Below are positions 5,283 through 17,401 of a stretch of DNA of 25,312 bases, piece after piece (position 1 is the stretch's first letter; each line of letters begins with the position of its first letter). The notes under the pieces are model-generated. The model worked only from the letters and a program-made list of their open reading frames with translations. It was not told where the DNA came from and searched no databases. The stretch comes from Actinomycetota bacterium (GTDB taxonomy: Bacteria > Actinomycetota > Thermoleophilia > Gaiellales > Gaiellaceae): NCBI GenBank assembly GCA_013695295.1, contig JACDAS010000208.1, forward strand, positions 1 through 25,312, written 5' to 3'. The position numbers and the translations under genes are program-made.

Positions 5283-5455
5283 CGTCGTCCCGTCTCGGTG
5301 GGTACGACGGTCTGCCGGTGGGCCGCTGGGGTTGAGCGGCCGCACCGGCAGAGCCGCCGCGGCCTCTTCGGGGCGGCGTCGCGAGCGAGCGCCTTCACGT
5401 CCGCGCTCTCTTTGTTGACGCGTCTGGCACGGGAGACCCCACCTCCCCGACCCAT
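5279..5455 (-). CDS. Candidate 58-aa basic small protein (not in ORF track)
   Basis: MGRGGGVSRARRVNKESADVKALARDAAPKRPRRLCRCGRSTPAAHRQTVVPTETGRR. TAGGCT box (5462-5467) is 6 nt before the ATG, and the TGA overlaps the ATG of the next ABC gene. Confidence 0.45.
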
Positions 5456-5489: not shown

Positions 5490-5521
5490 GTGCCGGTTTC
5501 GTGCCGGTTTCGTGCCGGGTC
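5490..5521. repeat. Short tandem repeat (GTGCCGGTTTC)x2 plus GTGCCGGGTC
   Basis: 11-nt units at 5490-5500 and 5501-5511 and a degenerate third copy at 5512-5521, just after the ABC stop codon. Confidence 0.75.
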
Positions 5522-7940: not shown

Positions 7941-8182
7941 GCCCGCACGACGGCGAACCTGCCCTCGTGGAGCACGTTGCCGCCGCCGAGCTCGGCCGCG
8001 AGCTCCGCTCCCTTGAAGTACCGCTTGTAGACCTCCCAGCGGGAGCCGTCGTTCAGCAGGCGCTCCTGCCGCTGCACGGGTGCCTCGGCCGGGCGGAAGT
8101 GCGAGTCGCAGACGACGAGCTCGGGAGCCACCCGTCTCGCCTCCGAGAGGAACCGGAGCCGGTCGGGCTCCTCGAGATGGCC
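7937..8182 (-). pseudogene. 3' half of a class I SAM-dependent methyltransferase-like gene, 5' half missing
   Basis: GHLEEPDRLRFLSEARRVAPELVVCDS...RLLNDGSRWEVYKRYF resembles the C-terminal half of small class I MTases. There is no GxGxG motif, and coding sequence stops abruptly where a repeat copy begins (about 8182). Family call is from recall only. Confidence 0.6.
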
Positions 8183-8244
8183 TCTGCCCCTGATCCGTCC
8201 GAACTGACCGGGCGAGCGCGTGGGATTCAGACCCACGCTCCTAG
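8182..8244. repeat. Truncated (right-hand ~60 nt) copy of the 16079-16373 repeat unit
   Basis: CTCTGCCCCTGATCCGTCCGAACTGACCGGGCGAGCGCGTGGGATTCAGACCCACGCTCCTAG aligns with CTCTGCCCGTGATCCGTCTGAACCGACC...GAGCG...CACGCTCCTAG of the array. Confidence 0.9.
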
Positions 8245-8248
8245 ACTA
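8242..8248. promoter_or_regulatory. Overlapping divergent -10 boxes TAGACT (+, 8242-8247) and TAGTCT (-, 8248-8243)
   Basis: Each hexamer lies exactly 6 nt before a GTG (8254 on +, 8236 on -). Confidence 0.5.
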
Positions 8249-15458: not shown

Positions 15459-15617
15459 GGCCTGTCCGGAAAGGGAGCCGCCGCTCATGCCGTGCCAGAA
15501 GCAAGCGATGCAAGGACGCAGGGAGCCGCAATCTGCGGGCAGATTGGGGCGACTGAGGACGCGGCAGCGCGCCGCTTGTCGCGCGGCAGGAGCCCGGCCC
15601 GCTTTCTGGACAGGCCC
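15458..15617. mobile_element. MITE-like element A (160 bp)
   Basis: 16-bp terminal inverted repeats GGGCCTGTCC(G/A)GAAAG (15458-15473 and 15602-15617, one mismatch), flanked on both sides by CTA (15455-15457, 15618-15620); no transposase. Confidence 0.85.
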
Positions 15618-15626
15618 CTAAGTCCG

Positions 15627-16082
15627 ATGCCCTCTCGCAAGCAGCGACGGCGGCGTGCCAAGGACAGGCGTCACGAGTACGAGTACGTCCTCGTGGACTC
15701 GGAGGGCCACGAGGTCGAGGGCGCGGAGGAGGAAGAACCGCGGCCCGACAGGCGCGCTCGCACGGATGCGCGCGCCGAGCGGCCCCGTGGCGGATCCGCT
15801 CGCCCCGCCCAGGCCGGGCGCGGCGGCCGCAAGGTCGAGCCGGCGTCCTGGCGCCGCGTCGCGCGCCGGTCGCTGATCTTCGCCCCGCTGATGTTCATCA
15901 CCGTCGTCCTGCTGAATCGCAAGCAGACGACCGGCGCGCACCTCGTCACGACGGCGTTCCTGCTCACCTTCTTCGTGCCCTTCCAGTACGTGATGGACAC
16001 GATCGTCTACCGCTCATACCTGCGCCGGACCGGCCAGGGGGCCTCCGGCAAGGGCGAGTCGAAGCCGGCGAAGCGGCGCTAG
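15627..16082 (+). CDS. Hypothetical membrane protein (basic/acidic N-terminus, two C-terminal TM segments), 151 aa
   Basis: Track ORF 15492..16082 starts inside MITE A; the first ATG after the MITE gives MPSRKQRRRRAKDRRHEYEY...; TM segments SLIFAPLMFITVVLL and LVTTAFLLTFFVPFQYVM. Confidence 0.75.
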   Translation: MPSRKQRRRRAKDRRHEYEYVLVDSEGHEVEGAEEEEPRPDRRARTDARAERPRGGSARPAQAGRGGRKVEPASWRRVARRSLIFAPLMFITVVLLNRKQTTGAHLVTTAFLLTFFVPFQYVMDTIVYRSYLRRTGQGASGKGESKPAKRR

Positions 16083-16373
16083 GGCGTCGCTTGCGATGCC
16101 CGCCTCAGGATCGCGGGCTCTGCCCGTGATCCGTCTGAACCGACCGAACGAGCGCGTGGAGTAGGGTCACGCTCCTAGGGGCGTCGCTTGCGATGCCCGC
16201 GTCAGGATCGCGGGCTCTGCCCGTGATCCGTCTGAACCGACCGGCCGAGCGCGCGGGGTCCAGACCCACGTCCTAGGGCGTCGCTTGCGATGCCCGCCTC
16301 AGATCACGGGCTCTGCCCGTGATCCGTCTGAACCGACCCGGCCGAGCGGGTGGAGTGGACCCAACGCTCCTAG
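16079..16373. repeat. Tandem array of three 96-98 bp CTAG-delimited structured units
   Basis: CTAG at 16079, 16175, 16273 and 16370. Units share an almost identical ~65-nt core (GGCGTCGCTTGCGATGCCCGC..CAG(G)ATC(G/A)CGGGCTCTGCCCGTGATCCGTCTGAACCGACC) and a more variable ~30-nt hairpin GAGCG...CGCTC. Confidence 0.95.
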
Positions 16374-16711
16374 CGCTGCTCGCCGCGGTAGTGGCCCTCG
16401 CCGGGCCACGGCGCGAGCAGGAGGAGGATGAGGGCGCCGTTCTCGGAGGAGACGACGTGACGCTCCTGCGGAGCGAACGTCGCGAGCGTCCCGGCACCGG
16501 CGTCCATCGCCTCTCCGTCCGCCGGGCCGATCCGCACGGAGCCGTCGACCACCAGCACGAATGCCCGCTCCTTGACCTCGTGCTCGCCGAGCTCCTGCCC
16601 GGGGTCGAGCGCGATCAGCACTGCGCGTGCCTCGCCGTGGCCGGAGAAGAGGACGACGGGCGAGCGGCTTCCGCCGGGGGTTTCGATCTCGCGGAGGCTC
16701 CAGGTCTGCAC
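16370..16711 (-). CDS. Cupin-domain protein (113 aa)
   Basis: C-terminal part of track ORF 16370..17167: GQELGEHEVKERAFVLVVDGSVRI...FAPQERHVV cupin motifs. GTG 16711 lies 8 nt after TAGATT. Confidence 0.85.
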   Translation of the reverse strand: MQTWSLREIETPGGSRSPVVLFSGHGEARAVLIALDPGQELGEHEVKERAFVLVVDGSVRIGPADGEAMDAGAGTLATFAPQERHVVSSENGALILLLLAPWPGEGHYRGEQR

Positions 16712-16750
16712 GGGAGAGGAATCTACCCTGCGGGTTAGACTGGAAGCTCG

Positions 16751-17401
16751 ATGGCACTCGCGGTCGATCGCTACGAGCTGGGGCAGATCGGGACGAATTG
16801 CTATGTCGTCCGAAGCGGGCCCGGGGCGACCGACGCGGTCGTCGTCGATCCTGGTGGGGACGTCACCGCACTGCGGCTCGAGCTCGCACGGCTCGGGAGG
16901 CGCTGCCGCGCGATCCTGATCACGCACTGCCACTGGGACCACCTCGGCGGCGTCGCCGATCTCGCCGAGGCGACCGGTGCCCCGGTCCACATGGGCGCCG
17001 ACGAGGCCGGCGTCCTCGAGGCTCCTGCGGACTTCTACCCGGGCGTCCGGGTACGCCCCTACGTGCCGGAGGTTCGCCTCGCCGGCGACGAGACGCTCGA
17101 CCTGGCTGGGATCACGTTCGAGACGGTGCGCGTCCCGGGTCACTCGCCCGGGCATCTCGCGTTCCATGCCGCGGGATCACTGTTCTCGGGCGACGTTCTC
17201 TTCGCCGGCTCCGTCGGCCGCACCGACCTGCCGATGGCCGACTGGGAGACGCTCCTGGCCTCGATCAGGCTCCTCCTCGCGCGCTTCCCGCCCGAGACGG
17301 TCGTCTACTCCGGCCACGGCCCGCCGACGACGCTTGGCGAGGAGCTCGCACGCAACCCGTTCCTGACCGAGCTCCGCGCGGAGCAGCACAGCGCGGCGTG
17401 A
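16751..17401 (+). CDS. MBL-fold metallo-hydrolase (glyoxalase II/YcbL-like)
   Basis: THCHWDH, GHSPGH, FSGDVLF and SGHG metal-binding motifs; usual neighbour of hisS. Confidence 0.93.
   Translation: MALAVDRYELGQIGTNCYVVRSGPGATDAVVVDPGGDVTALRLELARLGRRCRAILITHCHWDHLGGVADLAEATGAPVHMGADEAGVLEAPADFYPGVRVRPYVPEVRLAGDETLDLAGITFETVRVPGHSPGHLAFHAAGSLFSGDVLFAGSVGRTDLPMADWETLLASIRLLLARFPPETVVYSGHGPPTTLGEELARNPFLTELRAEQHSAA

Follow-up and report, generated by a model that had tools for sequence, protein, structure and literature searches.

A short structured repeat that probably inserts at stop-codon words in genomes of the soil family Gaiellaceae

In a 25,312-nt stretch of DNA (contig JACDAS010000208.1 of assembly GCA_013695295.1, hereafter the window) from an uncultured member of the family Gaiellaceae, we found a tandem array at positions 16079-16373 that sits in the CTAG giving stop codons to two convergent genes. 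The array probably represents three independent or semi-independent copies of a non-coding, non-autonomous repeat element of about 93 nt which inserts at stop-codon words. That the array is an insertion follows from the comparison of filled and empty sites among relatives, and each unit combines a constant, covarying core with a far more variable tail. The source genome (G000) is a 2.3-Mb metagenome-assembled genome (MAG) with a G+C content of 71%, in 358 contigs and 82% complete.

Filled and empty sites

In a relative (G014), the orthologous convergent spacer is GCGCG-CTAG-GCGCC, a single CTAG serving both stops. A first-pass annotation, made from the letters of the window alone, had predicted an empty site of this kind. 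The same spacer is nearly empty in G005 (TAA-GAG-CTA), and in the sister species G001 it is 64 nt long and without the element. A comparable contrast was found at the junction of dppB and dppC, which is filled by a copy in G122, a genome of a distant genus. In G016 this junction is TACTCGTGAGCGTCGC, with the stop and start overlapping in GTGA, and it is similarly short in most other relatives; the comparison takes in two genomes flagged as unpublished (G192 and G021), and apart from it and one tally of Y1_Tnp genes that takes in a third (G083), none of the claims made here depends on such genomes.

As a separate observation, the dppB|dppC junction of G005 (L253, C19) holds a different, palindromic MITE (miniature inverted-repeat transposable element), which measures about 190 bp and has GTGTCCCGTTCCAGAAGT as its inverted ends; the stop words that flank it contain TA. 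A piece related to it lies in G020 (L135), in the spacer orthologous to that of the window's array.

Structure of the array

Tandem Repeats Finder gave a period of 97, 3.0 copies and 87% matches for 16079-16373. The order is CTAG-unit-CTAG-unit-CTAG-unit-CTAG, with head-to-tail units of 93 nt each (97 bp with the shared CTAG), and the two stops lie at the first and the last CTAG, as the first-pass annotation had described. The window contains a 21-nt piece of hairpin 1 three times, where chance would give 0.03. The features are listed below, with scores from a covariance model of the core (R1).

16079-16082, no strand: left CTAG, whose TAG is the stop of the plus-strand gene ending at 16082
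16083-16175, plus strand: unit 1, 93 nt, with hairpin 1, hairpin 2, the conserved single-stranded motif CCGTCTGAACCGACCG and a variable tail with hairpin 3; core at 16080-16151, 81.2 bits
16176-16179, no strand: CTAG common to units 1 and 2
16180-16272, plus strand: unit 2, with one extra initial G relative to units 1 and 3; 80.1 bits at 16177-16248
16273-16276, no strand: CTAG common to units 2 and 3
16277-16369, plus strand: unit 3, with A-T in hairpin 2 where units 1 and 2 have G.T; 64.6 bits at 16274-16345
16370-16373, no strand: right CTAG, whose CTA is the minus-strand stop (TAG) of the minus-strand gene
15576-16082, plus strand: upstream gene without a Pfam match (longest open reading frame (ORF) from 15492), its stop kept by the element's CTAG
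16370-17167, minus strand: convergent downstream gene with a weak Cupin_2 match, its stop kept by the last CTAG
8176-8245, plus strand: 5'-truncated unit (about 8176-8241) followed by the terminal CTAG at 8242-8245

The truncated unit, which had been noticed as a further copy at 8218, indeed ends on CTAG. Its right flank is the same as that of a two-unit array in G001 (L200), so the two are orthologous, and each carries the hairpin 2 variant of its own genome. The inverted unit ends that had been proposed, G(A/G)GCGT, hold up as a short match between GGGCGT and GGAGCGT; the match covers only about 7 nt, includes a gap and is not conserved in other genera.

The window also holds a weak R1 match (22.8 bits) at 5319-5396 on the minus strand, which belongs to a second repeat family. 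This family has hairpin 1 in common and differs in the second hairpin and the junction (AGAAGAGGCC-stem-GGCCGCTCRACCC), and its siblings in G000 lie at C231:147-220, C283:1530-1605 and C251:922-999. A third repeat type occurs in the same genome at C74:5793, C223:2146 and C158:2671. The intergenic gap of the second-family copy further contains an 11-nt tandem repeat, GTGCCGGTTTC x 2.6, at 5490-5518.

Copies in the source genome and their target word

A search of G000 with nhmmer gave 25 matches on 16 contigs, comprising arrays of five (running off a contig end), three and two units, about a dozen solo copies and a few truncated ones. The R1 model gave 31 matches, about 11 of them divergent, and some of the 31 are sister families that have hairpin 1 in common. 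At the unit ends examined, CTAG was present at 10 of 14 on the left and 11 of 15 on the right; this word is strongly avoided in G000 (1111 observed vs 6055 expected from base composition). The copies adjoin stop codons on either side and in either orientation, and at least one, on C197, shows the operon-type arrangement with stop and start rebuilt. A longer autonomous form was considered on C235 and C345, and the partial copies there proved to be plain truncations.

We also observed the array in four soil or terrestrial metagenome runs, where the summed contig depth over the units (window 16061-16315) was about 5-80x that of the flanks. Contigs reached both array edges and none crossed the whole array; they ended within it, so the repeat breaks short-read assemblies. 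Two single-contig joints skip 477 nt (X3) and 356 nt (X4), with the content between the two sides not readable.

Fold and covariation of the core

The core consists of the first 72-74 nt, with two GC-rich hairpins and the conserved single-stranded motif. Hairpin 1, GGCGTCGC-TT-GCGATGCC, and hairpin 2, an 11-bp stem GGATC(G/A)CGGGC-TCT-GCCCGTGATCC, form in all three units. The G/A difference in hairpin 2 exchanges a G.T wobble for an A-T pair, so that pairing is kept, as the first-pass annotation had stated. Its count of three hairpins per unit stands for these two, while hairpin 3 (GAGCG...CGCTC), in the tail, forms weakly and varies from unit to unit.

A test of covariation had been suggested at the outset, and compensatory changes were found in 11 of the 22 predicted pairs among 47 core sequences from many genomes. 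The 893 pair cells comprise 786 Watson-Crick pairs, 60 G.T, 1 A.C, 23 other mismatches and 23 gaps. Since a G.T on the given strand is an A.C mismatch on the opposite one, only the given strand is built to fold. Relative to shuffled sequence, the three units gave z values of -2.3 to -2.6 on the plus strand and -1.1 to -2.2 on the minus strand. From this single-strand folding bias we infer that the element moves or acts as a single strand, as RNA or single-stranded DNA (ssDNA).

The core loops are often CTTG, CTTCG or CTCCG, which we take to resemble the stable CUUG and UNCG tetraloops of RNA. Compensatory differences were also found among copies inside one genome, in G122 and in G169. Only two tRNAs passed the Rfam gathering threshold in the whole window, and in a permissive search of 15950-16500 the best matches were at chance level (E 1.2 or worse). 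In two public MAG contigs (L022 and L036), core copies carry the extra hairpin of another repeat type nested in hairpin 2.

Constant core, variable tail and growth of arrays

Among 19 aligned units of G000, mean column entropy was 0.14-0.39 bits over the first ~90 columns vs 1.1-1.5 bits at the 3' end, and mean pairwise distance was 0.05-0.08 in the core and 0.29-0.31 in the tail. In G001 (55 units at 24 loci), the core is nearly invariant and the last ~20 nt are 10-40% non-consensus, with distances of 0.035-0.039 vs 0.14-0.17. In these two genomes of the genus, the tail therefore diverges about 4-6 times as fast as the core. G122, which belongs to the distant genus, has about 12 near-random tail nt, with the core and the last 9 nt kept. 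Variation is thus not spread evenly along the unit, in agreement with the earlier observation; the word hypervariable, used there of the hairpin in the tail, overstates the case for G001. The uneven conservation is general, and how strong it is varies with copy age. We read the core as being under constraint, either in each resident copy or since only copies with an intact core leave descendants, and the tail as nearly neutral.

No sign was found that the tails derive from flanking DNA, the longest words shared with their own flanks being the same as those shared with the flanks of other loci. In a weak test of the loops as guides, they matched other loci no more than shuffled loops did. The alternative suggestion of an array processed into small structured RNAs with variable loops was not borne out: matches of the loops to their own flanks or to other loci stayed within chance, and copies lie in both orientations relative to genes.

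The mean tail distance in G000 was 0.314 between adjacent units vs 0.292 between loci (6 adjacent pairs), and in G001 the values were 0.142 vs 0.168 (31 pairs, P about 0.05). That adjacent units of G000 are not more alike fits repeated insertion better than plain tandem duplication. In G001 the outer borders are CTAG and the inner junctions often GTAG or CCAG, and several loci share the same types of dimer, which fits repeated landing on a regenerated CTAG, sometimes with copying of a whole dimer. G014 has arrays of near-identical units, apparently from local duplication. Overall, the dispersed copies, the CTAG ends, the empty site and the divergence of adjacent units support the first-pass proposal of a non-autonomous element that re-enters the CTAG it regenerates.

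Distribution among relatives

The search in relatives that had been recommended found the element largely confined to one family. Of 24 other genomes in the same family, 6 had a BLAST match to unit 1, each belonging to a different genus, and none of 16 genomes of the other families searched had one. With the R1 model, 11 of 45 other genomes sampled of the same family were positive, against 0/37, 0/14, 0/9 and 1/45 in four other families of the order. In the phylum otherwise, the model found 1 of 150 genomes, that one being a MAG with 6% contamination. Element-bearing genomes hold from 10 to at least 32 copies. A scan of public genomes with CCGTCTGAANNGACCG yielded, besides many chance hits, at least about 38 loci with a true core among the matches listed, and the contigs carrying the core among these matches are mostly titled as Gaiellaceae, Gaiellales or uncultured Actinomycetes MAGs.

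Copies inside operons

Two genomes, G122 (three contigs) and G169 (one contig, at least 24 copies), revealed a second mode of occupancy. In G122, 14 of 21 copies are sense and lie between co-directional genes. Their geometry is mostly fixed: the TGA stop of the upstream gene forms the first three bases of the element (TGAGAC...), and the GTG or ATG of the next gene follows exactly 27 nt past the core in 12 of the 14 sense copies. The tail here consists of CACG, about 12 variable nt, GGAGG (Shine-Dalgarno-like), NN, CGGCT and (G/A)TGA. At a GTGA junction, a copy thus restores both the stop and the start and supplies a ribosome-binding site. In addition, a 34-codon frame is present in 11 copies, namely 10 of the 12 and another for which no upstream gene was called. 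Its closing TGA overlaps the start of the gene downstream, and in 10 of these 11 copies its opening ATG or GTG overlaps the upstream stop. A small ORF of this kind, bridging the flanking stop and start, is present in G122 and G169 and not in the window's array, which lies between convergent genes. Antisense copies inside operons make up 4 of 21 in G122 and 6 of 24 in G169, and occur at 5 of 29 loci in other genomes.

The copies in G122 have TGA on both sides, as most copies in G000 have CTAG. The base before the left TGA and that before the right one (the fourth base) differ in 7 of 10 G122 copies; therefore either the duplication covers only three bases and the element ends in a purine, or the right-hand word is the element's own. 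Two same-strand copy pairs 2.0 and 2.5 kb apart in G122 and G169 were considered as a longer autonomous form, and they enclose ordinary operon genes and no transposase.

Search for a mobilising enzyme

The first-pass annotation had suggested looking for a linked transposase with the same ends (IS5, IS110/IS1111, IS200/IS605 or RAYT), and none was found. Across five genomes, IS630 DDE_3, TnpB (PF07282) and the reverse transcriptase domain RVT_1 were each found in 0/5. No parent element bearing TnpA or TnpB was found. IS110 matched in four of the five and not in G122, and DDE_Tnp_1 and DDE_Tnp_1_2 matched in some genomes, again not in G122.

An insertion sequence (IS) of about 981 bp in G000 (L150 1100-2080, C182) encodes a 287-aa DDE_Tnp_1 transposase and has CTAG at both ends. 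It is bounded by a perfect 21-nt inverted repeat including the CTAG, CTAGAGGCTTGATGTGGGTTC, and the IS inverted repeat GAGGCTTGATGTGGGTTC is absent from the unit ends. A relative with 64% identity in G001 (L182) is inserted in a CTAG at the edge of a unit array. This IS is common to G000 and G001, and a search of four further element-rich genomes did not find it. Beside the G000 copy lies a serine-recombinase-like ORF (L150 2069-2755, minus strand), named by eye from its sequence.

Genes with Y1_Tnp occur in 11 of 12 element-bearing genomes of the family and in 25 of 34 without the element. A 188-aa Y1_Tnp gene of G001 (L141 1330-2070, C26) is bracketed by its own repeats, CCGGGCCTGGCCCC(C)TG(A/G)ACA, which are unlike the element. 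As for the Ssn system, the published pattern of the Ssn-related motif (SRM) had no match to the array on either strand. All 41 GIY-YIG matches in the 25 genomes searched lay in open frames of at least 138 aa, and those in five element-bearing genomes measured 449-1216 aa. Involvement of Ssn/SRM was ruled out on these two grounds, the missing motif match and the lack of a small GIY-YIG gene in element-bearing genomes.

Discussion

The evidence above favours an inserting repeat, and its possible workings can be sketched as follows. The element probably inserts at a stop-codon tetranucleotide, with a copy of that word on both sides afterwards. The target is CTAG in this genus, and in a distant genus of the family it is RTGA where a stop and a start overlap. 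The flanking genes therefore keep their stops, or stop and start, and a fresh target stands beside every copy, by which arrays would grow. The 72-74-nt core would serve, on one strand only and as ssDNA or RNA, as the cis-acting module for copying. The tail of about 25 nt is nearly free to vary, save for its last bases and, in operon lineages, the ribosome-binding site. The element presumably is or was actively mobile, and its core presumably acts as the recognition module. A bolder and tentative version of this account sees a single-strand-folding family specialised to be harmless. It would land on a stop word (CTAG, RTGA) at gene borders and rebuild the stop, and in operons it would bring its own ribosome-binding site, start codon and read-through mini-ORF. 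The copying might be done by an enzyme outside the families tested, with the core as the handle of that enzyme and the tail as an adapter fitting the locus.

Several observations weigh against the insertion account. At least one occupied site is common to G000 and the sister species G001 (window 8176-8245 and L200); therefore some sites are old, or they are hot spots with turnover or gene conversion. The compensatory differences within G122 and within G169 could reflect selection on resident copies and hence a host function, and gene conversion among cores, instead of recent copying, could give the same contrast between core and tail. No presence/absence polymorphism was seen in the four metagenome runs, where contigs end within the array. 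The enzyme families tested, seven in all (RAYT/Y1, IS5-type, IS630, IS110, TnpB, reverse transcriptase and Ssn), show no association with the element. Within the order, Y1_Tnp is found in 109 of 151 genomes, whether or not the element is there (a tally that takes in G083, flagged as unpublished) and was not found in G169, and units lie within 1.5 kb at only one of 14 Y1 loci. The element-rich G122 gave no match to DDE_Tnp_1, DDE_Tnp_1_2, IS110, DDE_3, TnpB or RVT_1. As to mechanism, a target-site duplication (TAG/CTAG or TGA) and an end borne by the element give the same picture and cannot be told apart.

Two established modes of transposition deserve comparison. IS5-group elements prefer YTAR/TNA targets, and a classical MITE moved in trans by an IS5-superfamily DDE transposase, with duplication of CTAG (or TA), would explain the CTAG on both sides of the units; the ~981-bp IS of G000 and its relative in a CTAG at a unit-array edge of G001 would also suit it. 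We nevertheless consider it improbable, as the unit ends (GGGCGTCGC...; reverse-complemented, GGAGCGTGGG...) are unlike the inverted repeat of that IS, its transposase was present only in G001 among five element-rich genomes searched, and G122 lacks a match to DDE_Tnp_1 or DDE_Tnp_1_2. Double-strand cut-and-paste, moreover, does not need strand-asymmetric hairpins, and in G122, 7 of 10 copies have unlike tetranucleotides on the left and the right. The element is strand-asymmetric, lacks inverted ends and has a word-specific target, and in these three features it resembles single-strand elements of the HUH type more than DDE-type MITEs. An element of the REP/REPIN or PATE type, moved as ssDNA by a Y1 HUH transposase (RAYT or IS200/IS605 TnpA), would fit these traits, the similar tetranucleotides at the 5' and 3' ends, the Y1_Tnp genes of most element-bearing genomes and a Y1 gene of G001 only 600 nt from a three-unit array. 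The evidence on enzymes gives the HUH class no backing either. Y1_Tnp is equally common in genomes of the family without the element and has no match in G169, no unit lies within 1.5 kb at 13 of 14 Y1 loci, and the Y1 gene of G001 is flanked by different repeats of its own. There is no TnpB match, and whereas IS200/IS605 ends resemble each other, hairpins 1, 2 and 3 are mutually unlike. This route, too, seems to us a poor prospect.

The remaining explanations dispense with transposition. A cis-acting structured RNA kept by the host, such as an intercistronic mRNA stabiliser, a processing site, a translational-coupling device or a small-RNA array, is somewhat easier to entertain, though still unlikely. 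It would account for the covariation, also among copies of one genome, the G.U pairs on one strand and the CUUG/UNCG-like loops, and for the 14 of 21 sense copies of G122 at a fixed distance from the next start with a Shine-Dalgarno-like GGAGG. It sits badly with the patchy occurrence within the family (11 of 45 genomes), the filled and empty states of orthologous sites, the antisense copies in operons (at 5 of 29 loci, and 6 of 24 in G169) and the position of the window's array between convergent genes. Nor does any Rfam family pass the threshold, and loop matches stay at chance level. A minisatellite without mobility, produced by plain local tandem duplication, is scarcely credible; the head-to-tail units of one period and the near-identical arrays of G014 are what it predicts, but solo copies are dispersed over 16 contigs, adjacent units in G000 are no more alike than distant ones, and every junction in the array is a CTAG.

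The element adds a well-delimited repeat family, with its covariance model, for poorly known soil Actinomycetota. Such repeats break assemblies: the MAG is split into 358 contigs, one array is cut by the end of its contig, and in four metagenomes contigs stop inside the array. The family offers a clean case of an element that leaves neighbouring genes with their stops and starts, and the contrast in rate between core and tail provides a way to separate the cis-acting part from the passenger part in such elements. The point of interest here is the missing mobiliser. As the seven families tested show no association with the element, finding the enzyme could expose a new mobilisation route, and it would bear on the long-open question of how mycobacterial interspersed repetitive units (MIRUs) spread.

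Comparison with known systems

The element lacks the inverted ends in common with an IS that define DDE-type MITEs, and it does not show the defining traits of the REP-RAYT, PATE and Ssn/SRM systems. By organisation it appears closest to MIRUs and, more distantly, to CTAG-targeting MITEs, REPINs/PATEs and ERIC/Correia elements.

With MITEs of the IS5 superfamily it shares small size, a non-coding nature, multiple copies and a CTAG on both sides that often supplies TAG stops, and an IS with CTAG ends is present in the same genome. It differs in having no terminal inverted repeats in common with any IS, in being most conserved internally instead of terminally, in its strand-asymmetric hairpins, and in being abundant in G122, which gave no match to such a transposase. 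Like REP/REPIN-RAYT and PATE elements, it is a hairpin repeat without inverted ends that folds on one strand, has a conserved tetranucleotide beside the hairpin and is frequently clustered. Unlike them, it has no association with a Y1 gene, and its unit is longer, with three unlike hairpins. Its tetranucleotide is a stop-codon word (CTAG or RTGA), and hairpins 1 and 3 do not resemble each other as the similar subterminal hairpins of PATE and IS200/IS605 elements do. ERIC and Correia (NEMIS) elements are intergenic, about 100-150 bp long, co-transcribed with their neighbours and conserved across genera, with TA-containing insertion sites; they are long imperfect palindromes with inverted ends, whereas the present element is asymmetric.

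The Ssn-related motifs (SRM/NTS) that accompany Ssn GIY-YIG nucleases, as presented in PMC11893778, are multi-copy hairpin repeats read as ssDNA, and in both respects the element is similar to them. The SRM pattern described there nonetheless has no match to the array, and the GIY-YIG frames of element-bearing genomes are 449-1216 aa long.

MIRUs, according to the summary of Supply et al. (1997) in PMC3184786, are actinobacterial repeats of 40-100 bp, present in tens of copies per genome, solo or in tandem, in intergenic positions and often in operons. The same summary gives them internal inverted repeats rich in GC, direct repeats of a tetranucleotide where a site is filled, a mobilising enzyme yet to be identified, and small ORFs overlapping at one end the stop and at the other the start of the genes on either side. 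Compared by description, the element agrees with MIRUs in size, copy number, solo or tandem intergenic placement, internal inverted repeats and tetranucleotide repeats, and its bridging mini-ORF in G122 and G169 recalls that of mycobacterial MIRUs (PMC3184786). It departs from MIRUs, as far as that summary describes them, in being found only in one family of uncultured soil Actinomycetota, in having a defined two-hairpin core with covariation, and in lying, in this genus, on CTAG at gene ends in either orientation and not mainly inside operons. No description of the family was found in searches of the literature on REP/RAYT elements of Actinobacteria, on bacterial CTAG-duplicating MITEs or on intergenic stem-loop repeats of Gaiella. 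The first-pass suggestion of an undescribed system may therefore be kept for the family, which seems to be new, while the kind to which it belongs, the intergenic repeats of MIRU, MITE or REP-like character, is already known.

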